The notes under the pieces are model-generated. The model had not been told where the DNA came from. It made no database searches and saw only the letters and a program-made list of their open reading frames with translations. Positions 8,014 to 17,534 of a stretch of 52,240 bases of DNA are shown in pieces (within the stretch, counting starts at the first letter, position 1; each line of letters starts with the position of its first letter). Position numbers and translations under genes: made by a program. This DNA comes from Candidatus Zhuqueibacterota bacterium (GTDB lineage: Bacteria > Zhuqueibacterota > Zhuqueibacteria > Oceanimicrobiales > Oceanimicrobiaceae): the NCBI GenBank assembly GCA_022562085.1, contig JADFPY010000001.1:1-52240 (forward strand), written 5' to 3'.

Positions 8014-9915
8014 ATGGATAATAACAAAAAGATAATTCTACTTGTGGATGATGATCCTGATATGCTTGAAATTGGCGGCATTATTGTTAAGCGAGCCGGA
8101 TATGGGTGCATCCCCGCTATGTCCGGAGAAGAGGGATTGGCCTCTCTAATCCAAAACAAGCCGGATCTGGTCATACTGGATTATATGATGCCTAACATGA
8201 ATGGGTTTGAGTTTTTCCAGCAACTCAGGCAAAATTCAAAATACAAAATTGTGCGGGATACGCCAGTTATTCTATTAACGGCTGCTTCTGAGAAAGAGAC
8301 AGAACGACAGAAGTTGTTCGAGTTAGGATTAAGCAATTTCCTATTGAAACCTTTTGGCAATCGCGAGTTGTTAAATATTATCGATAATGTCTTAATTCAA
8401 CATGAGCTACGTTTAAAAAATAAGGAGTTGCAAGAGCAGGTTAAGCGCATAGAATACAAATACCAGGACTTGATTGAGAATGCTAGTGATTTAATCTTCA
8501 CCTTAGATGTGCAGGCGAAGTTTGTTTTCATCAACAGACGCATGGCCACAATTTGTAAACAACATAGAGAAGATTGGATCGACAAGAGTTTTTTTGATAT
8601 TATTGTTGTCGAGGATCGGGAAGAGGCCGCAGCGAAAGTAAAGAAAACCATAGAAGGTCGGTCAAGAATTTTTGAAGTTCGGATTAAAAGCGAAAAGGGC
8701 AAATATATTTACCTTTCCATTAACATAAATCCAATATTCGAAAAGGGAGAAATTGTAGGATGTGTCGGTATTGCTCGGGATATCACCGAAAAGAAACAGC
8801 TAGGCCAGGAAATTGTTGAATTAAAAAATTTCAATGAGAGCATAATACAAAGTATAAGTTCAGGTTTAATTACAGTTGATCTGCATCATAAGATAACCTC
8901 TTTTAACCACAGTGCTGAAGAAGTGTTGGGATATCCGGAAATTGAGGTCATTGGCAAACCCTTAAATGAAGTTTTTGCAAAGGAAGATTGCGAAAAATTA
9001 CTGTCAAACATGGATGAGCCGGATAGAGAGCTTTTGAACCGTGAGATGCCGCTGACTGCCAAAGACGGCAATCGGGTTTATATCGGTTTTACCGTTACGC
9101 CAAGAATCGACACGCAAAATCGGCGGGTTGGCTCGATAATTTCTTTTAAGGACATTACGCAAATAAAACAGATGCAGGTCGAAGTTCAGAGGATGGATAG
9201 GTTGGCATCTATGGGGGTTCTGGCTTCAGGAATTGCCCATGAAATCAGAAACCCTCTCGCCGGTATCAAAACTATCGCCCAAACATTAGAGGAAGATATC
9301 GAGCCCGATGATTCCCGTCGTGAATATGTCTCCCGTATTGTTCGGCAAGTCAACCGGATGGATGATTTACTTAAGACAATCTTTTCTTATGCAAAACCCC
9401 GCCAGCCAAAAAGAAATTTGCACCGGTTCCAGGAAATAGTACAGGAAGTTGTTGCTTTATTGGAGAATCGAATGCGGGCACAATCTGTTAAATACATTGA
9501 AGCCTATCATTCTGATTTGCCCTTGGTTCATGTTGATTTTCATCAATTAGAACAGGTATTTGTAAATTTGTTTCTAAATGCCTTAGATGCCATGCCCAAA
9601 GGGGGCGAGTTAAAGCTCGAGGCCTATCCAAAAATAACGACGCTATGCCGTGTCGATCGGCGTGGGCGTTCTTTCTCGGTTCAAAACAAGAGCTCTCTGT
9701 ACACCGAGGTCAGCATAACCGATACCGGAGAGGGAATTGATTCGAGTAACCTGAATTCGATTTTCAATCCATTTTTCACCACCAAACCTCAGGGCTCTGG
9801 TTTGGGGTTGTCAATTGTTTATAGAATTATGTCGGAACATCAAGGAGATATCCAGGTAGGCACCACCACAAATAACGGTACGACATTTAAGCTCCTGTTA
9901 CCTACGGAGGGATAA
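8014..9915 (+). CDS. Cytoplasmic hybrid sensor kinase (REC-PAS-PAS-HisKA-HATPase_c)
   Basis: N-terminal receiver: LLVDDDPDM, DLVILDYMMPNMNGF, LLKPF. Two PAS-like segments. NtrB/AtoS-type H-box GIAHEIRNPLAGI. ATPase boxes DTGEGI, GSGLGLSIVY. Confidence 0.9.
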   Translation: MDNNKKIILLVDDDPDMLEIGGIIVKRAGYGCIPAMSGEEGLASLIQNKPDLVILDYMMPNMNGFEFFQQLRQNSKYKIVRDTPVILLTAASEKETERQKLFELGLSNFLLKPFGNRELLNIIDNVLIQHELRLKNKELQEQVKRIEYKYQDLIENASDLIFTLDVQAKFVFINRRMATICKQHREDWIDKSFFDIIVVEDREEAAAKVKKTIEGRSRIFEVRIKSEKGKYIYLSININPIFEKGEIVGCVGIARDITEKKQLGQEIVELKNFNESIIQSISSGLITVDLHHKITSFNHSAEEVLGYPEIEVIGKPLNEVFAKEDCEKLLSNMDEPDRELLNREMPLTAKDGNRVYIGFTVTPRIDTQNRRVGSIISFKDITQIKQMQVEVQRMDRLASMGVLASGIAHEIRNPLAGIKTIAQTLEEDIEPDDSRREYVSRIVRQVNRMDDLLKTIFSYAKPRQPKRNLHRFQEIVQEVVALLENRMRAQSVKYIEAYHSDLPLVHVDFHQLEQVFVNLFLNALDAMPKGGELKLEAYPKITTLCRVDRRGRSFSVQNKSSLYTEVSITDTGEGIDSSNLNSIFNPFFTTKPQGSGLGLSIVYRIMSEHQGDIQVGTTTNNGTTFKLLLPTEG

Positions 9916-9920
9916 GATTT

Positions 9921-11288
9921 ATGTCTAAGGGAAACATACTAATAGTCGAAGATAACGAAGATTTAGGCCTAACTCTGGCTGACGTTTTGAGAAAAGAAAG
10001 CAACAAAGTCAGCATTGCCTTAACCGGCGAGCATGCTTTGTCTGTCCTTCAAAAAGAGATAATCAACTTGGTTCTTTTGGATATTAAACTTCCCGACATT
10101 AATGGTATAGAGCTGCTTCAAAAAATTAAAGAGAAGGACCCGGATATTCTGGTAATTATGATAACTGCACTAACCGACGCTAAACCCGCGATAGACGCCA
10201 TGAAAATGGGCGCCTATGATTATTTGATGAAGCCGTTTGAATTGGATGAGCTTAAGATCGATGTGGCAAAAGCTCTGGAGACTCAGGATCTCAAAAGAGA
10301 GGTGACCCGACTCAAGAGCCAGCGCAAAGAGGCATTTCCAGACAATGAGCTTTTTGGAGAAACGGAACCGATACGCGAACTCAAGAAGCTGATTCATATC
10401 GTCGCATCAACACCGAAGACCTCTGTTTTGATTCAAGGTGAAAGCGGCACGGGAAAAGAGCTGGTTGCAAATGCTATTCATAACTGGAGCCAGCGTAAAG
10501 ATAAGCCGCTGGTTAAAATCAATTGCAGCGCGATTCCGGAAACTCTTCTGGAGAGCGAGCTGTTTGGTCATGAAAGGGGTTCGTTTACTGATGCCAAAAC
10601 TCTCAAAAAAGGCATCTTTGAAATGGCCAACAACGGCACGATTTTTTTAGATGAAATTTCCAGCATGCAGATGTCCATTCAACCGAAACTTTTGCGCGTA
10701 CTCGAAACCCAGTCTTTTCGGAGAATCGGCGGGACTTCAGACATCCAGATCGACGTGAGAATAATTGCCGCCACAAATAGAAATCTTGAAGATTGCATTG
10801 AGAAGCAGATTTTCAGGGAAGATTTATATTACCGACTGAAAGTGATGGTCATAAACATTCCACCGTTGCGGGAAAGGCAGGAGGATGTCATTCCGTTAGC
10901 TATGTTGTTTATTGAGCGAAACAACAAAGAAATTGTCAAAGAGATAAAAGGCATCTCTCCCGAAACTCAGGAGCGCATGCTGAAATACAACTGGCCAGGC
11001 AATGTTCGGGAACTTAAAAATGTGATCGAAAGAGCGGTTATTTTATGTGGCGAGGATAAACTCCAGTTAGACCATCTGCCGGAACTGCGAGATGGCGTTT
11101 CGAGACTAGGACCTTCCAAGGAATTTTCTTCCTTTTCAAGCGACGACGACTCCTTAGAAGCAATGGAGAAACAGCATATTTTTAGAATGCTGGAAAAATA
11201 TAACGGCAACAAGTCTCAAACTGCCCGAAACCTGAGCATCTCTCGTTCAACTCTTCGCGAGAAAATGAAAAACTACGGCATCGCTTGA
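9921..11288 (+). CDS. Sigma54-dependent response regulator (NtrC/AtoC family enhancer-binding protein)
   Basis: REC: ILIVEDNEDL, LVLLDIKLPDINGI, LMKPF. AAA+ domain: Walker A GESGTGKE, ESELFGHERGSFTDA (a variant of the GAFTGA loop), Walker B IFLDEI. C-terminal Fis-type HTH SQTARNLSISRSTLREKMKNYGI. Confidence 0.92.
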   Translation: MSKGNILIVEDNEDLGLTLADVLRKESNKVSIALTGEHALSVLQKEIINLVLLDIKLPDINGIELLQKIKEKDPDILVIMITALTDAKPAIDAMKMGAYDYLMKPFELDELKIDVAKALETQDLKREVTRLKSQRKEAFPDNELFGETEPIRELKKLIHIVASTPKTSVLIQGESGTGKELVANAIHNWSQRKDKPLVKINCSAIPETLLESELFGHERGSFTDAKTLKKGIFEMANNGTIFLDEISSMQMSIQPKLLRVLETQSFRRIGGTSDIQIDVRIIAATNRNLEDCIEKQIFREDLYYRLKVMVINIPPLRERQEDVIPLAMLFIERNNKEIVKEIKGISPETQERMLKYNWPGNVRELKNVIERAVILCGEDKLQLDHLPELRDGVSRLGPSKEFSSFSSDDDSLEAMEKQHIFRMLEKYNGNKSQTARNLSISRSTLREKMKNYGIA

Positions 11289-11494: not shown

Positions 11495-11510
11495 TGGTAC
11501 GGCCTTTGCT
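11495..11510 (+). promoter_or_regulatory. Sigma54 (RpoN) -24/-12 promoter
   Basis: TGGTACGGCCTTTGCT matches TGGCACG-N4-TTGCW with correct GG/GC spacing and one mismatch. It lies 50 nt upstream of the ParA-like start and directly downstream of an NtrC-type activator gene. Confidence 0.7.
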
Positions 11511-11560: not shown

Positions 11561-12379
11561 ATGGGAGAGGTTATCGCCATTTCCAGCCAGAAAGGTGGTG
11601 TTGGCAAAACGACAACAGCAGTAAATTTAGGCGCAAGTCTGGCCCATCTGGGGCATCGTGTCTTATTGATCGATATGGATCCCCAGGGAAGTGTTTCGGC
11701 AAGTTTCGGTCACAATCGTTATGATATCGTTGCCGGAATTATAGACATTTTTATTGAAGAGGTTCCAGTTTCAAAAGCAATTCATGCGACCGGGCAAGAT
11801 AATTTTGATTTTATCCCCACAAATTTATGGGCAGATGAAAGCGAAAAAAGAAAGTTAATTGGAATTGCTCCGAAAATACAATTAAAAAAGGTTTTGGAAC
11901 CCATTAAAGAAGACTACGATTTTATTCTGATTGATTGTCCGCCGTCTGTCGGAAATTTGACTTTTAATGCCCTGACAGCGGCCGACTCGATAATTATTCC
12001 AATCCAGTGCGAATACTACGCTCTCAAAGCTCTGGGACGCTTCCTGAAGCTCACCAGAATTATTAAAAATGAGTTGAATCCAAATTTAAGATACCGCGGT
12101 TTTTTGTTGACTATGGTGGATATACGAAATAAGCTCACTAATATAGTAATCGAAAAAATCCGGTGTACATTGCAGGGATTGGTTTTTGACACCATGATTC
12201 CAAGAAACATTAGGTTGGCCGAAGTTCCTTACCGCGGCGGTGCTGTGATAACCTTTGACAAAAGCTGCAAGGGTGCACAAAGCTATTTAGATTTAGCGAA
12301 CGAGGTCCTCGACCACAAAGTAAGAACCGTGGTAACCGCTGAAGAGTCTGAGAAAATAAACGTTGTAGAGGGAGTCTAA
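11561..12379 (+). CDS. Orphan ParA/Soj-family P-loop ATPase (no ParB partner nearby)
   Basis: Deviant Walker A SQKGGVGKTTTAVNLG, LIDMDPQG, Walker B ILIDCPPS. Soj-like C-terminal region IPRNIRLAEVPYRGGAVITFDKSCKGAQSYLDLANEV. Confidence 0.9.
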   Translation: MGEVIAISSQKGGVGKTTTAVNLGASLAHLGHRVLLIDMDPQGSVSASFGHNRYDIVAGIIDIFIEEVPVSKAIHATGQDNFDFIPTNLWADESEKRKLIGIAPKIQLKKVLEPIKEDYDFILIDCPPSVGNLTFNALTAADSIIIPIQCEYYALKALGRFLKLTRIIKNELNPNLRYRGFLLTMVDIRNKLTNIVIEKIRCTLQGLVFDTMIPRNIRLAEVPYRGGAVITFDKSCKGAQSYLDLANEVLDHKVRTVVTAEESEKINVVEGV

Positions 12380-12381
12380 TA

Positions 12382-12777
12382 TTGCCTACGATTCTTTTAG
12401 TTGAAGATGATACTAACACTCGTTTTGGACTTGCAGAGATTTTAACAAGTGAAGGCTACGACGTCGTATTAGCGGAGGATGCTGAGGAAGCCCTTGAAAA
12501 GGTAGACTGGGAAACCGACTTGCTATTATCAGATTTACAACTTCCCGGGATCTCTGGTTTGGCGTTGTGGAATCAAGCGAGGCAGCGGTACCCGGAGTTG
12601 GTTTCAATCATTATGACTGCATTTAACACTCCCGAAAATAAATTGCAAGCGGAGGATTCAGGGGTTTTCTCTTTTCTCAACAAGCCTTTGAATATTGATC
12701 AGTTGTTATCAGCAATAGAGAACGCACTGCTTCAAAATAAATTAAATGGGCGACATATTTTGATAAAGGCACTGTGA
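12382..12777 (+). CDS. Single-domain CheY-like response regulator
   Basis: TTG start 2 nt after the ParA-like stop. REC motifs: ILLVEDDTN, phospho-acceptor context LLLSDLQLPGISG, IMTAF, NKPL. No output domain. Confidence 0.85.
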   Translation: MPTILLVEDDTNTRFGLAEILTSEGYDVVLAEDAEEALEKVDWETDLLLSDLQLPGISGLALWNQARQRYPELVSIIMTAFNTPENKLQAEDSGVFSFLNKPLNIDQLLSAIENALLQNKLNGRHILIKAL

Positions 12778-13536
12778 TTGAATCGTGATTCATTTGAGTT
12801 CTTTTTAAATCGGAAGGAGGTAACGGTTTTGATAGTTTCATTTTTGGTTTCTATGTTTAAGAAGGCTTTATTTATGGGTCTCATGGTTTTGATGTTCGTA
12901 TCAGTGATGAGTTTTACCCACAATAATAGCTTAAAACTGCAGAAGGAACGCGAGACGCTCAGCGAAATCACGCGCGAGGTGCTGAACTATCAAGGGACTG
13001 TCAAGACAGAAAGTTTCCGAAAAAATGCCATCAACAAAATTATTGGCATCATTGACAGATATAATCGCACAATGAGTAGCAGCTTGAAATATGACATTGC
13101 CAGAGAAATCCAAAAGATGAGTGTTAAATATTCAAATTTGGATATCAATCTCATTTGTGCAACCATTACTCATGAAAGCGCGCGAAGTTGGCGGCCGGAA
13201 GTGGTGTCCCCGGCAGGAGCTTTGGGGTTGATGCAAATTATGCCATATACCGGGAAACATCTTGTCAAGCATGAAGGGATTAAGTGGACGTCTTCTAAGG
13301 AAGTTCTATTTAACCCGATTACCAATATAAGAATAGGCTGCCGTTATCTTTCCATGTTGGTTGAGCTTTACAATGTTGATGGCGGCCTTGCGGCCTATAA
13401 CGGCGGGCCAAGACGAGCCAAAAAATGGATTACCAGCGGGCGCAATTATGACGTTTTGCTGGAAGAAACCCGGTATTATGTACCCGCAGTTTTGGAATTA
13501 TATGATCATTATAAAAGCAGAACTTTGTTAGATTAG
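12778..13536 (+). CDS. Membrane-anchored lytic transglycosylase (SLT domain, GH23)
   Basis: Hydrophobic anchor ALFMGLMVLMFVSVMSF. Catalytic-Glu motif ATITHESARSW. GALGLMQIMPYTG and AAYNGGPRRA motifs. The true start may be internal, after the SD GGAAGGAGG at 12813-12821. Confidence 0.85.
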   Translation: MNRDSFEFFLNRKEVTVLIVSFLVSMFKKALFMGLMVLMFVSVMSFTHNNSLKLQKERETLSEITREVLNYQGTVKTESFRKNAINKIIGIIDRYNRTMSSSLKYDIAREIQKMSVKYSNLDINLICATITHESARSWRPEVVSPAGALGLMQIMPYTGKHLVKHEGIKWTSSKEVLFNPITNIRIGCRYLSMLVELYNVDGGLAAYNGGPRRAKKWITSGRNYDVLLEETRYYVPAVLELYDHYKSRTLLD

Positions 13537-13550
13537 GTTTAAGTTAAGAT

Positions 13551-15263
13551 ATGCCAGTAAAACCGAACGAGTTGTCAATAGATCATTTTCGTACCGAGCT
13601 GATAAATCGTTTTTTCCATTCTGAGAGTTACTTTTTACATTGTTTTGGCCACCACCTTCAGGCTTTCCTGGATGAGGGAGGCAACTCAAACAAGAATGAG
13701 TATCTGCTCGTCGGAAATTTGATGGATAAACTCGTCGCTTCTCAGAATGTCACTTCCGAATTCGAATCAATTTTAGCGCTGCAAGGTTTTGAAGAGTTCA
13801 AGGAAAGGCTCTCAAATGGAATTCAATACCTCTACGAGTCCGACCTGGAACCTGAAAAAATGAAAATCGAGATCGAGAGTCTGGCGCAATCGATGTTCGG
13901 CAGTGCAGTAGCTGCTTTTCAAAATGAAGAAAGCAATCATGAAATAAAAAGCCTGCTTGGGATTAATCTCATACCGGCAGATAGTGTAGATGTGTTAGAG
14001 TTACAGGAGCCATCTTCTGAAGGACCAGGATTAACGGAGTCAGAATTCTCAATGGAAGAGACAGACGGCATGGATGCCATTCCTCGGAACCAATTTGAAG
14101 AAAAGGATTTTCTTCTACCTGTGGATGAGGGCAAGGACGCGAACCCTGATGAACTGGAAGTTGGTTTGGTTGAAGAAGATGGCTCTCGTAACTCTGCCCA
14201 TGACGATGTTATCCTGATTAATAGTGAAGTAAGTCAGAAACCCGCAAGTGTTGATGAGGCCTTTCATTTGGCTGTGGGAAACCAAGTTAATGAATTACAG
14301 AATAAAATTGACCTTCTGAGCTCCGAGAACCATAACAGCAACAGCTTGCAGAAGTGTGATGAAATTTTTGAAAATATTCTTTCCAGTTCGATGATTTGTG
14401 GTTTTGACGCGGTTGAAGAAGTCGCTGCGCAAGCAAGAAGATTTTTAGCGAACCTAAGCAGACAGTCAAATTTTGACGGCTGTCTTGCAATCTCACTGCT
14501 GACAGAAACAGTCAGCGTTCTTAAGATGATTTTGGAAAACGACCCGGATAACGTTGACGAACAAGCAATTTCGAATCTTTCTCAAAACCTTCTGAACCCG
14601 AATACAGTTGTCCCTACCAAAGAAGACGCTTCCGTAGCGCCAAAACCAAATAAAGAAAAGAATGATGAGCCGGTTAATTCTGGGCACTCCAATCTTGATG
14701 AATTTAAACTACCTGGCGAGGATGAGATTTTTAGTTTAATTAGCGAAATATCTGGAAATAGTCCACTTCAACAAGGAGTGGATATGCCTCCGAAATCGTC
14801 ACCAGAGCCAGAGCCTGAAATTAGTGCTGACGTCATGCAGGCTGAACCTGAGGACTTACTTTCAAGTTATAAGCAGCAGGCGGAGCTTTATTTTAAGGTA
14901 ATTGAGCAAGCGCTGAATCTTCTTGAGGGGCAACCCGGCCATAAAACCGCTCTCAAAGATATTGAGCTCGCTTGCAAATCGCTCTACGAGCTTTTAATGA
15001 AAATGAACCTGGATTCCATCGCTAAAACACCTGCACTTATGTCCAAATTAATCAATAGCATAATAAGCAATAGATATTCGCTGTCCACACACGAGCATAG
15101 CTTAATCAAAAATTCACTCAAAGATTTTCATGATATTGCCAACGTAGTTGATACGGAAAGACGAGAGTTTAAGGAAAACCTCGCTTCACTACAATCTTTG
15201 AATTCAAAAATTAAAATGAGCCAATCTCCATTACCCGATGCCAGAACGATAGACAAATTTTAA
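13551..15263 (+). CDS. 570-aa hyper-acidic protein with two HPt/CheA-P1-like helical modules lacking the acceptor His (putative scaffold)
   Basis: Long D/E/P/S-rich low-complexity stretches (for example SSPEPEPEISADVMQAEPEDLL). Two segments (about nt 14280-14540 and 14866-15160) fit the HPt helix pattern by eye (...IFENILSSSMICGFDAVEEVAAQARRFL...; ...LACKSLYELLMKMNLDSIAKTPALMSKLI...). I recognise no other family. Confidence 0.45.
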   Translation: MPVKPNELSIDHFRTELINRFFHSESYFLHCFGHHLQAFLDEGGNSNKNEYLLVGNLMDKLVASQNVTSEFESILALQGFEEFKERLSNGIQYLYESDLEPEKMKIEIESLAQSMFGSAVAAFQNEESNHEIKSLLGINLIPADSVDVLELQEPSSEGPGLTESEFSMEETDGMDAIPRNQFEEKDFLLPVDEGKDANPDELEVGLVEEDGSRNSAHDDVILINSEVSQKPASVDEAFHLAVGNQVNELQNKIDLLSSENHNSNSLQKCDEIFENILSSSMICGFDAVEEVAAQARRFLANLSRQSNFDGCLAISLLTETVSVLKMILENDPDNVDEQAISNLSQNLLNPNTVVPTKEDASVAPKPNKEKNDEPVNSGHSNLDEFKLPGEDEIFSLISEISGNSPLQQGVDMPPKSSPEPEPEISADVMQAEPEDLLSSYKQQAELYFKVIEQALNLLEGQPGHKTALKDIELACKSLYELLMKMNLDSIAKTPALMSKLINSIISNRYSLSTHEHSLIKNSLKDFHDIANVVDTERREFKENLASLQSLNSKIKMSQSPLPDARTIDKF

Positions 15264-15300
15264 AGAAGATAAAGTTTTATTCGCATTACATCATGATGAT

Positions 15301-16941
15301 ATGGTTAGTACAATGGCAAACAAAATTAAGACTGAAATAGATAAGCAACTGGAAGCAGTTCTCAGTTCACATAAAACCAAAATTCGTATTGTCGGTACAG
15401 GTGGGGGAGGAAACAACACGGTCACCCGGTTAGTTGAAGTCGGCATTAGTGAGGTTGACGTAATTGCCGTAAATACGGATGCCCAGGACTTGCTCTATGC
15501 CAAAGCTGATCACAAGGTTTTGATTGGCAAAAACATTACCCATGGCCTGGGAGCTGGCAGCGATCCTCAAAAAGGTGAAGATTCAGCGAAAGAAAACATT
15601 GAGGAACTGGAGGAAGTTCTCTCTGACAGCGATATGGTTTTTATCACCTGCGGACTGGGCGGGGGCACAGGAACAGGTTCAGCTCCGGTCATTGCTGAGA
15701 TTTCCAAGAGATGTGGGGCACTGACCATAGCGGTGGTAACATTGCCATTTAGCGACGAAGGCGTTATTAGATGGGAAAATGCTCGAAAAGGCCTCGAACA
15801 GTTACAGAATAACGTTGATACGGTCATTGTCGTTCAGAACGACCTGCTATTAGATTTAGTTCCGGATATGCCCCTGAATGCTGCTTTTAAATTTGCAGAC
15901 GAAATTTTAGTGAATGCGGTTAAAGGAATCACCGAGCTGGTGACCGAGAAGGGCCTGGTAAATCTGGACTTTGCCGATGTGAAAACCATCATGCAAGGCG
16001 GCGGACTTGCGATGATCGGTTTGGGAGAAACAGATTCGCAAGAAAACATCGAAGAAGCAGCCAAGAAAGCGCTGGAAAATCCGCTGCTAGATATCGATAT
16101 TACTGGCGCGAAGAGCGCGTTGATTAACATAACCGGCGGTCAAGATATGTCTTTGAAGTCAGCGAAAACCATTATGAAGACAGTTGCCGAGCAATTAGAT
16201 CCATCTGCGAAAATTATTTGGGGAACCCGAATCGACGAATCTATGGGGCAGTCCCTGAGAGTGATGCTCATCGTGACCTGCTTGAAATCCGGCCAACCCT
16301 CGACCTCTGGGAAGGAAACCCGGCCGAGCTTCGAAATAAGTGACGAAACGTCTTCCCAAGATGAAGCCGAAGAGGTTCAAGTGGTTGAAAATTCAGACAC
16401 AGCTTCGCAGCATCCTTCCAAATCTCAAAAAGTATTTTCCGAAATTTTCATGGAAGAGACAGAAACGGACATTTCAGTCCTGGAAGAAGCGATTAATAAC
16501 TTAGCTGTAGAAAGTGGTGAGAACGAGAAACATCTTAGTGACATTAGCACCTCTGCTTCATCTATTTACAGTTCATCTGAATTGTTTGATTATGACAAAA
16601 TATCAGAGTTCGCAGAACTTTTGGGAGAAGTTACTAAAGATGCATTAAATGGTAAACTCAATCTTTCTGAAGACGTCATAGAATTATTTCAACAAATGCC
16701 TTCAGCGTTAAGAAGTGCCACGAAAGGAGATGGAAAAGACCTCGAAGAGATAAAGCAAAGTATTCTGAAGTTACTGGACTCGATTATTCAATCGCGCGAC
16801 ACCGATTCGGCTCCGGATTTTGAATCCACTGATGAAGAGCCTGAGATTCTTAATGAATCCGAAGCTCAGGAAGAGGAAGTTGAGGATCTTGAGCATACAA
16901 ATGTTCGTGAAACGGTAAAATACTTTGATAAACTGCTTTAA
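15301..16941 (+). CDS. ftsZ: FtsZ-family tubulin-like GTPase with about 210-aa C-terminal extension (acidic linker, HPt-like module, acidic tail)
   Basis: Motifs present: IRIVGTGGGGNNTV, NTDAQDL, GLGAGSDPQKG, tubulin signature FITCGLGGGTGTG, VVTLPFSDEG, T7 loop NLDFADV, and C-terminal domain motifs AMIGLGE...ALENPLLD...INITGG. There is no adjacent ftsA or other dcw genes. Confidence 0.9.
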   Translation: MVSTMANKIKTEIDKQLEAVLSSHKTKIRIVGTGGGGNNTVTRLVEVGISEVDVIAVNTDAQDLLYAKADHKVLIGKNITHGLGAGSDPQKGEDSAKENIEELEEVLSDSDMVFITCGLGGGTGTGSAPVIAEISKRCGALTIAVVTLPFSDEGVIRWENARKGLEQLQNNVDTVIVVQNDLLLDLVPDMPLNAAFKFADEILVNAVKGITELVTEKGLVNLDFADVKTIMQGGGLAMIGLGETDSQENIEEAAKKALENPLLDIDITGAKSALINITGGQDMSLKSAKTIMKTVAEQLDPSAKIIWGTRIDESMGQSLRVMLIVTCLKSGQPSTSGKETRPSFEISDETSSQDEAEEVQVVENSDTASQHPSKSQKVFSEIFMEETETDISVLEEAINNLAVESGENEKHLSDISTSASSIYSSSELFDYDKISEFAELLGEVTKDALNGKLNLSEDVIELFQQMPSALRSATKGDGKDLEEIKQSILKLLDSIIQSRDTDSAPDFESTDEEPEILNESEAQEEEVEDLEHTNVRETVKYFDKLL

Positions 16942-16964
16942 TTTCAGCTGCTAATATTGAAAGC

Positions 16965-17534
16965 ATGAACTCGTCAAGTATGCAGGATCCCTCATTGCAA
17001 AAACCTTATGTTCGCAAGGTAATGCGAGGTTTAAAAAAGATAAGGATTGCCCTTGCCAGGGTTCATGACAACCCGAACAATCGCGATGCTTGTATTGAAA
17101 TTCGGAACACAGCCCAATCAATTTCCGAACTTGCAATGATACATGGGTATCACGGCGTCGAAAGCATCGCGCGCAAGATTTATACCTCATTTAAGCGGTC
17201 CAAAATTAAATCAGATCCTGATTTTCTTTACAAAATCGAACTCGCTGTCAAAGGCATTCAACGTGTGGTGGGAATGGAAGACGGGATAGAGAGTAAATTG
17301 ACCATTGAAAAGGTAACTCGGGGCGCGAAAGAGGTCTCTAAACAAATCTCAAGTCTCGATGAGCTTAGTGAAGAGCAGCGCCAAATGGTTGAATTGGAAA
17401 GTGACGCGAAACTTTTATTTGATATAAAAGAGAGCGATTTTTTAAACAATATTCCAGGTGTACCCATCTCAAAAAATATAAAAACCGATCTTAAGATCAA
17501 CCCGAACCGGCAAGATACCTTCCTGAGCAGATAA
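16965..17534 (+). CDS. 189-aa HPt/CheA-P1-like protein without acceptor histidine
   Basis: VMRGLKKIRIALARVHDNPNNRDACIEIRNTAQSISELAMIHGYHGVESIARKIYTSFKR...DPDFLYKIELAVKGIQRVV fits the HPt four-helix pattern by eye. Gln occupies the position ten residues before the conserved Gly, where His is expected. Confidence 0.4.
   Translation: MNSSSMQDPSLQKPYVRKVMRGLKKIRIALARVHDNPNNRDACIEIRNTAQSISELAMIHGYHGVESIARKIYTSFKRSKIKSDPDFLYKIELAVKGIQRVVGMEDGIESKLTIEKVTRGAKEVSKQISSLDELSEEQRQMVELESDAKLLFDIKESDFLNNIPGVPISKNIKTDLKINPNRQDTFLSR

Follow-up and report, generated by a model that had tools for sequence, protein, structure and literature searches.

Four histidine-less CheA-P1/HPt-like modules in FtsZ and its two neighbouring proteins in an uncultured bacterial lineage

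Why should an FtsZ carry, within its C-terminal linker, a folded domain of the kind found in chemotaxis kinases, why should the proteins encoded on either side of it carry more of them, and what can such domains do once the phospho-acceptor histidine is gone? These questions are raised by a 52,240-nucleotide (nt) stretch of DNA from Candidatus Zhuqueibacterota bacterium (assembly GCA_022562085.1, contig JADFPY010000001.1), called the window below. Working from the letters alone, the original prediction had placed four modules resembling the P1 domain of CheA, or the histidine phosphotransfer (HPt) domain, in three consecutive proteins of the window, none with the histidine. Profile, profile-profile and predicted-structure evidence agrees with that description, and we regard the identity of all four as CheA-P1/HPt domains as close to certain. 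Precomputed annotations show no more than a weak Hpt flag, on a single orthologue.

The segments quoted in the prediction are exact substrings of three consecutive + strand open reading frames (ORFs), which encode a 570-residue protein, a 546-residue FtsZ and a 189-residue protein. Segment A is residues 247-317 of the 570-residue protein (nt 14289-14501), segment B residues 444-512 of the same protein (nt 14880-15086), segment C residues 383-463 of FtsZ (nt 16447-16689) and segment D residues 19-98 of the 189-residue protein (nt 17019-17258). The modules to which they belong are the following.

14244..14594, + strand: module A, pseudo-P1/HPt, residues 232-348 of the 570-residue protein; histidine-equivalent E274 (nt 14370-14372)
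14847..15218, + strand: module B, pseudo-P1/HPt, residues 433-556 of the 570-residue protein; histidine-equivalent K476 (nt 14976-14978)
16426..16776, + strand: module C, pseudo-P1/HPt, residues 376-492 of FtsZ; histidine-equivalent S420 (nt 16558-16560)
16989..17297, + strand: module D, pseudo-P1/HPt, residues 9-111 of the 189-residue protein; histidine-equivalent Q51 (nt 17115-17117)

Each module was studied as a family. The alignments draw on homologues among 31 database proteins and on neighbouring genes on 20 fetched loci; a word-index search with the FtsZ extension gave 2 matches only, and relatives were gathered through neighbouring genes and a genome scan. The reference set was 28 canonical, histidine-containing P1 domains, found by scanning 1.84 billion representative proteins, and the internal control was the N-terminal domain of the 570-residue protein. 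Comparison with canonical P1 by hhalign gave these results.

Family A: 97.0%, E 8e-11, 116 columns, z=25 against shuffles
Family B: 95.7%, E 8e-9, 114 columns, z=27 against shuffles
Family C: 99.3%, E 1e-20, 116 columns, z=60 against shuffles
Family D: 94.7%, E 6e-8, 92 columns, z=10 against shuffles
N-terminal domain (internal control): 1.1%, E 0.048, 38 columns, z=1.4

The alignments of A-D to canonical P1 are in register and full length. Moreover, the A and D profiles independently match canonical P1/HPt proteins from a scan seeded with module C (e.g. P0118 at 1.9e-8 and P0093 at 1.5e-7). Searched against the PDB, the module C family profile puts Salmonella CheA P1 (1i5n) on top, full length at E 1.3e-8, and a merged A+D profile puts Thermotoga maritima CheA P1 (1tqg) on top, gapless at E 3.1e-6. 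For the module B profile CheA P1 is the best natural PDB match, at a non-significant E of 0.37, so the identity of B rests on the profile-profile evidence. A plain Pfam Hpt (PF01627) search of each segment, the check proposed with the prediction, succeeds for C only: module C scores 27.3 bits in isolation (cut-off 24.6) and 24.0 within the full FtsZ, and all seven of the seven C-family members match. Since it misses A, B and D, recognition of these three requires the family profiles.

The prediction had also raised, with some doubt, a fifth copy that keeps its histidine at the start of the 570-residue protein (RFFHSESYF..., residues 20-42). This copy is rejected. The region belongs to a separate domain:

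13551..13958, + strand: N-terminal helical domain, residues 1-136 of the 570-residue protein, with the motif ELINRFF[HN]xxSYF

AlphaFold gives this domain 7 helices at a per-residue confidence (pLDDT) of ~85. No significant PDB or Pfam match and no HPt match was found there, its hhalign result against P1 is that of the control above, and the candidate histidine, His23, is Asn in 3 of 11 relatives. It is the best-conserved part of the protein, with an invariant ELxxRFFxxxSYF, and it marks distant orthologues: it is detected in the corresponding proteins of loci L016 and L019 at 1.8e-30 and 1.9e-19.

Structure prediction points the same way as the profiles. The AlphaFold models cover the 570-residue protein (modules A and B) and the 189-residue protein (module D), as monomers. 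The former, from a 13-sequence alignment and with a mean pLDDT of 67.5, has confident helical domains at residues 10-136, 234-348 and 433-556, disordered linkers between them and a short helix at 390-401. Predicted helices run at 234-258, 263-283, 286-304, 310-330 and 337-348 in module A and at 433-460, 465-484, 492-506, 513-527 and 532-556 in module B (pLDDT 84-93). Module D is predicted as a four-helix bundle (9-35, 40-60, 63-77 and 85-111; pLDDT 80-94) with disorder after it. Foldseek listings for both models are dominated by P1/HPt entries. In the PDB the 570-residue model matches BRIC1, a tandem repeat designed from CheA P1, over 330 aligned columns, CheA P1 1i5n (the match for module A) with a target-normalised TM-score (TMt) of 0.76 and a root-mean-square deviation (rmsd) of 2.9 A, and also CheA3 P1 (3kyi) and HPt proteins. 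The 189-residue model matches CheA P1 1tqg (TMt 0.86), P1 redesigns (rmsd 1.3-1.5 A) and HptB. The helical-bundle geometry that had been anticipated is thus predicted for A, B and D, and the two models match CheA P1 at TMt 0.76-0.86.

Among themselves the modules form two close pairs, A/D and B/C, as judged from pairwise scores against shuffled controls. With single sequences (Smith-Waterman, 1000 shuffles) B-C reaches z=9.3, A-D z=5.7, B-D z=3.6 and A-C z=2.2, while the similarity of A-B and of C-D is not significant. With family profiles hhalign gives 97% for A-D (E 8e-11), 95.4% for B-C (2e-8), 55% for A-C and 33% for B-D; against 60 column shuffles the z-scores are 17.6 (A-D), 18.4 (B-C), 7.4 (B-D), 6.8 (A-C) and 5.1 (C-D), and -0.3 for A-B. 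The claim of one pattern shared by all four segments above shuffled controls therefore stands for A-D, B-C, B-D and A-C, and by profile for C-D, and is not supported for A-B. The two pairs are linked by the weaker scores, by their common match to canonical P1 and by intermediate sequences; the FtsZ module of L019, for example, is matched by all four module profiles, by that of module A at 7.8e-8.

What has been lost is the active site. The canonical consensus used is ..RaAHSIKGsA..fGf..Is..tH.mE.., and profile-profile alignment to the 28 canonical P1 domains places E274, K476, S420 and Q51 of A, B, C and D at the phospho-acceptor position, the same residues as had been read there by eye. Counting from that position, K(+3) is replaced by L/Y/Y/S in A/B/C/D, G(+4) by S/E/S/E, H(+19) by A/A/E/R and E(+22) by R/S/G/Y. 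Structural positions are kept: S(+1), I/L(+2) and, in A and D, the Gly of the helix B-C turn. No other histidine is invariant in the family alignments of modules A-D. Because the acceptor histidine and the other conserved polar active-site residues are gone from all four, their sequences indicate that the modules cannot act as canonical phosphotransfer domains.

The acceptor position also varies within each family. It is E/D/N/A/G among relatives of module A, K/N/S/E among those of module B (with a histidine in the single protein P0030), S in the KSB1 family of module C, with T or A in two species, and Q/K/A/R/E and others for module D. Across 16 distinct FtsZ-linked modules the residue is L, N, T, S, I, D or M, and a histidine is found in none (0/16). 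Of 97 aligned modules classed as non-FtsZ, 66 have the histidine; the remainder mostly resemble C-terminal FtsZ-P1 fragments or homologues of the small 189-residue protein. The modules are nevertheless not decaying: they keep 42-52% identity with ~3% indels, against 19-40% identity and 11-25% indels in the flanking linkers.

A family of ~1050-residue proteins (P0056, P0057, P0059, P0061 and P0063) holds the closest histidine-containing relatives of the B/C-type modules, with two to three P1/HPt modules that keep the residue (SGHSLKSS, AAHSLRSS). The gene for P0056 (L015, 10001-13165, the only such locus fetched) adjoins a gene for a 290-residue receiver protein, not ftsZ. We considered these proteins as orthologues of the 570-residue protein and set them apart because they keep the histidine, have no detectable N-terminal domain and are not encoded beside ftsZ.

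The three genes belong to a longer cluster. In the window its order, all on the + strand, is kinase, NtrC-like regulator, ParA-like ATPase, receiver, SLT transglycosylase, 570-residue protein (called the scaffold below), ftsZ, the 189-residue gene and guaB. Its members are as follows.

8014..9915, + strand: hybrid histidine kinase, REC-PAS-PAS-HisKA-HATPase by Pfam; upstream context
9921..11288, + strand: NtrC-like sigma54-dependent response regulator, REC-AAA+-HTH (ORF translation, and Pfam on orthologues)
11561..12379, + strand: ParA/MinD/MipZ-type P-loop ATPase (Pfam AAA_31 6e-54, CbiA, MipZ 1.5e-14)
12382..12777, + strand: single-domain receiver, REC (Pfam Response_reg 6e-24)
12778..13536, + strand: lytic transglycosylase with SLT domain (Pfam SLT 2.7e-22), a cluster member kept in relatives
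13551..15263, + strand: 570-residue scaffold protein, consisting of N-terminal domain, linker, module A, linker with short motif, and module B
15301..16941, + strand: FtsZ, 546 residues, with a P1-like domain within the C-terminal linker (TIGR00065; Pfam Tubulin, FtsZ_C and Hpt)
16965..17534, + strand: 189-residue protein, consisting of module D, a disordered tail and a short motif; the ORF directly after ftsZ

A hybrid kinase orthologue is found at the equivalent position in L002, L010-L014, L016 and L019. NtrC-like orthologues of 75-79% identity lie immediately 5′ of the cluster in L010-L014, and the ParA-like ATPase is 71-77% identical across all related loci. The receiver has a canonical acidic pocket as read from its translation (DD, D51, T79, K101). 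We dropped a chemotaxis-type identity for it, its top matches being NtrC-type receivers. Full-protein scans with Pfam and NCBIfam give no match for the scaffold or for the 189-residue protein. The 31 scaffold homologues among database proteins are all from uncultured organisms, and those that are named come from candidate division KSB1 bacterium.

The transglycosylase gene is retained within the cluster across related loci, and a hydrophobic N-terminal stretch of its product is probably a membrane anchor. Its best NCBIfam match is PRK11619 (murein transglycosylase, 2.1e-20) and its second the Borrelia flagellar-assembly transglycosylase BB0259 (2.6e-19), both far under their cut-offs. Transglycosylases of the BB0259 type are usually associated with insertion of a machine through peptidoglycan.

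The prediction had proposed a search for the same combination of pseudo-HPt modules and FtsZ fusion in other genomes, and it is found in KSB1 species and in more distant uncultured lineages. The full order in relatives is kinase, NtrC-like regulator, PATAN-REC (optional), ParA-like ATPase, REC, SLT, scaffold, FtsZ-P1, small protein and guaB, and the cluster is kept in every KSB1-type locus whose contig is long enough. Its gene order is present in L001, L002, L005, L006 and L008-L014; L001, L002, L005 and L006 are metagenomic loci, and the cluster also occurs in 7 species representatives from genome collections, all labelled KSB1 or Calditrichaceae/Caldithrix metagenome-assembled genomes. KSB1 assemblies with the cluster include GCA_022573005.1 and those to which contigs JAJDAF010000017.1, JAJDAD010000003.1 and SMXC01000167.1 belong. 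A gene of the 189-residue type is always immediately 3′ of ftsZ across the loci examined.

Further afield, with the FtsZ extension as seed, a scan of representative proteins yielded 84 matches at E<=1e-3, among them many other FtsZ proteins, 590-700 residues long, whose long linker includes a P1-like module. A VTLPF motif is common to the full-length FtsZ-P1 sequences that we read (P0050, P0062, P0065, P0066 and P0072). The triad of scaffold, FtsZ-P1 and small protein recurs in L016, L018, L019 and L020, with N-terminal domain and modules A, B and D detected. L016 and L019 have kinases, NtrC-like regulator, PATAN-REC, ParA-like ATPase, SLT, a 650-residue scaffold (module B match ~1e-18), FtsZ-P1 and a D-module protein; in L017 FtsZ-P1 is the only member in view. 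The small protein of L020 (2520-3743), like P0075 and P0112, bears a D-type module, an FDIKE motif and a second, C-type module, making five pseudo-P1 modules per system. As the order of the scaffold, A/D-type then B/C-type, is repeated in this small protein, the arrangement hints at an ancestral two-module unit.

In many relatives a PATAN-REC gene (PatA_N + REC) lies between the NtrC-like and ParA-like genes; those located are listed here.

L001, 5107-5781: PATAN-REC gene
L004, 552-1217: PATAN-REC gene
L016, 5531-6208: PATAN-REC gene
L019, 5478-6149: PATAN-REC gene

For L011-L014 its presence is deduced solely from a gap of ~900 nt between the NtrC-like and parA-like genes, a region that was not scanned. 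The window has no PATAN-REC gene and shows a 272-nt intergenic gap at that site. Of the 12 loci with a readable upstream part, 11 have a receiver gene of one kind or the other (REC or PATAN-REC) in the cluster.

Outside the modules, three short peptides stand out from variable linkers, and a promoter-like element precedes the ParA-like gene.

11495..11510, + strand: sigma54-type -24/-12 promoter-like element TGGTACGGCCTTTGCT, 51 nt before the parA-like start codon
14706..14756, + strand: conserved short motif KLPGEDEIFSLISEISG in the disordered linker of the scaffold (71% mean identity against 23-28% in its flanks)
16900..16938, + strand: FtsZ C-terminal peptide NVRETVKYFDKLL (83% mean identity without indels; 23% in the linker before it)
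17406..17444, + strand: conserved short motif AKLLFDIKESDFL in the 189-residue protein (69% mean identity against 19-37% in its flanks)

The scaffold motif (LPGED-EI..LI.EI) has invariant P388, G389, E390, E392, I393, L396 and I400 and a predicted helix at 390-401; it may resemble the acidic amphipathic CheY-binding peptides of the FliM N-terminus and the CheZ C-terminus. VKYFDKL of the FtsZ peptide is invariant in the KSB1 family, and distant FtsZ-P1 proteins have xVxYVKNLF-like C-termini. This peptide may resemble a MinD-like amphipathic membrane-targeting helix. In the motif of the 189-residue protein (LLFDIKE) the invariant residues are L151, F152, D153, I154 and E156. FDI[KR]E is found, in distant relatives, in the FtsZ linker instead of the small protein, and because it moves between the two across lineages its behaviour would fit a peptide ligand of a shared partner.

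An element of the form TGG[CT]A[CT]-N5-TTGC precedes the first gene of the cluster by 54-66 nt at 11 of 12 loci (the window, L001, L002, L004, L005, L010-L014 and L019), directly 3′ of the NtrC-like gene. Over the whole window the pattern is no more frequent than expected by chance; the element is therefore supported by its position and conservation, which suggest that the ftsZ operon may be under sigma54/NtrC control.

The FtsZ itself scores 413.9 bits with TIGR00065 against an equivalog cut-off of 295.2, matches Pfam Tubulin (9e-45) and FtsZ_C (1e-32), and has GGGTGTG and the T7-loop NLDFAD in its translation. Its GTPase core (15301-16320) is 56% identical to Methanocaldococcus jannaschii FtsZ1, gapless over 318 residues at 394.8 bits; among bacterial FtsZ in the PDB the best match is 45% identical, and none scores above 282 bits. 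By sequence comparison the core is nearer to archaeal FtsZ1 than to bacterial FtsZ, which may reflect either transfer from archaea or a slowly evolving lineage. A location beside ftsA and ftsQ in the division and cell wall (dcw) cluster is usual for ftsZ, not universal. No ftsA, ftsQ, mur or other dcw gene occurs in the 52-kb window, where ftsZ is flanked by the scaffold and 189-residue genes.

Taken together, the locus suggests that parts of two-component signalling are linked to an FtsZ cytoskeleton in a way not described before. We propose that the pseudo-P1 domains would serve as protein-docking modules, one on each FtsZ subunit by way of a flexible tether, and that the scaffold and the 189-residue protein, with their paralogous pseudo-P1 modules and short conserved peptides, would build, together with FtsZ, a multivalent assembly on the polymer. 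Receiver domains would be the likeliest ligands of the modules, either the operon's own single-domain receiver or, in relatives, the PATAN-receiver protein. By setting the phosphorylation state, the upstream kinases could in this way act on FtsZ assembly, bundling or positioning with no phosphotransfer through the modules, while the ParA-like ATPase may contribute positioning and the transglycosylase local cell-wall remodelling. We give the explanation as a whole, conserved pseudo-P1 modules in a receiver-docking, multivalent FtsZ assembly, slightly better than even chances. Its most specific part, that receivers bind the pseudo-P1 modules of FtsZ and both partners in a phosphorylation-dependent manner and so tune polymer assembly or placement, is a tentative proposal that we rate somewhat below even.

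Receiver binding is favoured because solved P1-receiver complexes are known, helices A and B are conserved, a receiver gene accompanies the cluster at 11 of 12 loci, and published precedents exist. Receiver domains are natural partners of P1, and P1-receiver complexes are among the structural matches (3kyi/3kyj and 2lp4). Conservation of the FtsZ module is highest in helices A and B, which in CheA P1 form the histidine-bearing side that faces the receiver (and the kinase). Receivers and modules are linked here by the genomic association with receiver genes.

Several observations weigh against the receiver-docking proposal, or against the case beneath it. The top PDB match of the operon receiver is the NtrC receiver, not chemotaxis CheY; L016 and L019 have no single-domain receiver, only the PATAN-REC gene; and the FtsZ-P1 of L017 has no receiver gene nearby. 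The three conserved short motifs are alternative ligands for the bundles. The nearness of the core to archaeal FtsZ1 and the lack of a dcw cluster bear on whether this is the division FtsZ. On domain identity, PF01627 matches just 2 of 23 A/D-family and none of 13 B-family members, and the Foldseek E-values are weak (0.008-1), though TM-scores and probabilities are high; the weakness is due in part to the long disordered stretches in the queries.

The main rival is a cross-linker that is independent of signalling: the bundles would bind each other or the short peptides and would bundle or anchor FtsZ in the manner of Zap, ZipA or SepF. We consider it possible but rather unlikely. It would make sense of the conservation of three short motifs in otherwise variable linkers, of the movement of FDI[KR]E between the small protein and the FtsZ linker, of the multivalency of 4-5 bundles per system and of the L017 FtsZ-P1 with no receiver gene nearby. 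It leaves unexplained the company that the cluster keeps in most loci, a receiver gene and a two-component/sigma54 regulatory unit, and the helices most conserved in the FtsZ module are those that face the receiver or kinase in CheA P1.

A further rival concerns the process served rather than the nature of the modules. The polymer could be an accessory FtsZ1-like cytoskeleton, expressed conditionally through sigma54 for some other envelope process and perhaps acquired from or shared with archaea, with a canonical ftsA-ftsZ pair elsewhere. The archaeal affinity of the core (56% and gapless to M. jannaschii FtsZ1, 45% to bacterial FtsZ), the lack of ftsA, ftsQ and mur within 52 kb, the conserved sigma54-type element beside an NtrC-like activator and the lytic transglycosylase in the operon all speak for this. 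The protein nevertheless passes the FtsZ equivalog model well over its cut-off, its GTP-binding and T7-loop motifs are retained and its C-terminal peptide is conserved; the cluster has housekeeping neighbours and a conserved synteny with guaB, and no second ftsZ was seen in the DNA examined, which did not extend to whole genomes. We judge the accessory role doubtful, about on a par with the cross-linker.

Persistence of phosphotransfer through a non-canonical acceptor, either the Ser/Thr of module C after the fashion of the Spt and Tpt domains of ChpA or a histidine elsewhere, is very improbable. Ser or Thr does occupy this position of the FtsZ module across most of the KSB1 family and several distant relatives, and ChpA has Ser- and Thr-type Xpt domains (PMC12632253). 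Yet the position is variable in all four module families and hence not conserved, K(+3), H(+19) and E(+22) have gone as well, no other histidine is invariant, the non-histidine Xpt domains of ChpA are reported to be unphosphorylated (PMC12632253), and the cluster has no CheA-type kinase. Least credible of all, and already disfavoured, is a generic four-helix-bundle resemblance that owes nothing to shared ancestry with HPt. In its favour, A, B and D escape Pfam, Foldseek also lists FliS, Psb27 and de novo designs, and shuffled columns lose their helical periodicity, so that z-scores of modest size might be generic. Against it, the alignments to canonical P1 cover the full length in register (E 6e-8 to 1e-20), the helical N-terminal control reaches only 1.1% (z=1.4), the search seeded with module C retrieved mostly canonical histidine-containing P1/HPt domains (66 of the 97 non-FtsZ modules), and the A and D profiles reach the same canonical domains on their own.

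One may go further and imagine that an FtsZ1-like clade, spanning KSB1 and other uncultured bacteria, captured a P1 domain in its linker and co-evolved with two pseudo-P1 partners, so that a phosphorylated receiver would bind the polymer and its scaffolds directly. A post-translational two-component switch on FtsZ assembly or placement would then be added to sigma54/NtrC transcriptional control of the operon, and the process served could be other than ordinary binary fission. This version is speculative and we think it rather unlikely.

Compared with CheA P1/HPt (PF01627; 1I5N, 1TQG, 3KYI), the modules are homologous by profile and have the predicted bundle fold in common, with a fifth helix, as CheA P1 has, in A and B. 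They differ in having lost the histidine, K(+3), H(+19) and E(+22), and in residing in FtsZ and in two proteins of unassigned family rather than on a kinase. On this comparison they are to be counted as homologues of the HPt family and not, by their residues, as functional phosphotransfer members.

We take FimL of Pseudomonas aeruginosa to be a histidine-less, HPt-like docking scaffold for a CheY-like receiver, and as an analogy for how the modules may act, first drawn in the original prediction, it is reasonable. FimL belongs to a hub at the pilus pole; the partner here is a cytoskeletal polymer, and the modules are spread over three proteins. In that system the localisation of the receiver PilG depends on the hub proteins FimV and FimL (PMC12632253). 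ChpA of the Pil-Chp system has Xpt domains of Hpt, Spt and Tpt types, of which 4 of 9 are unphosphorylated and have been proposed as possible binding scaffolds (PMC12632253). The likeness lies in multiple P1-like modules, some with Ser or Thr for His. The Xpt domains of ChpA are in cis to a CheA kinase core and to active Hpt domains, whereas here there is no module that keeps the histidine and no CheA-type kinase nearby.

Like ordinary FtsZ, which is a hub for FtsA, ZipA, SepF and Zap proteins, this one has a GTPase core, a variable disordered linker and a conserved terminal peptide; unlike it, it has a folded domain of ~117 residues within the linker and flanking genes other than ftsA and ftsQ. 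Its terminal VKYFDKLL lacks the proline-containing motif that is canonical for FtsZ. Regulation of FtsZ runs through the disordered linker and the terminal peptide. A signalling-derived folded domain placed in that linker, with paralogues in the flanking proteins, would couple two-component signalling to the cytoskeleton in a new way.

We know of no cyanobacterial FtsZ with a P1 insert. In Anabaena the PATAN-REC protein PatA binds essential proteins of the divisome and makes the division complex less stable (PMC7380572). A PATAN-REC gene is likewise within the cluster in many relatives, the window itself having none, but the PatA partners named in that work (PMC7380572) are not P1-like. As with MinD, MipZ and PomXYZ, a ParA/MinD/MipZ-type ATPase is encoded with FtsZ and large low-complexity scaffolds. 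Pfam and NCBIfam scans found no homology of the scaffold to PomX, PomY or MinC, and a coupling to receivers and pseudo-P1 modules is not known from those systems.

In the literature covered, which was full text with most subscription journals outside it, neither an FtsZ-HPt fusion nor these partner proteins are described, and nothing relevant was found on FtsZ in KSB1/Caldithrix or on pseudo-Hpt domains with FtsZ. FtsZ, pseudo-HPt scaffolds and ParA-like positioning are each familiar; what is new is their combination. It offers a clear natural case of a catalytic phosphotransfer domain repurposed, as we read it, for structural docking, conserved across lineages and open to comparative and biochemical study.

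The remainder of the window holds housekeeping genes (mutS, gmk, coaBC, dnaB, relA/spoT, sucCD, plsX and fabH). Across positions 1-52240 the + strand carries nearly every long ORF, and the GC skew stays positive all along, its cumulative value climbing steadily, a pattern consistent with a single leading-strand chromosomal segment.

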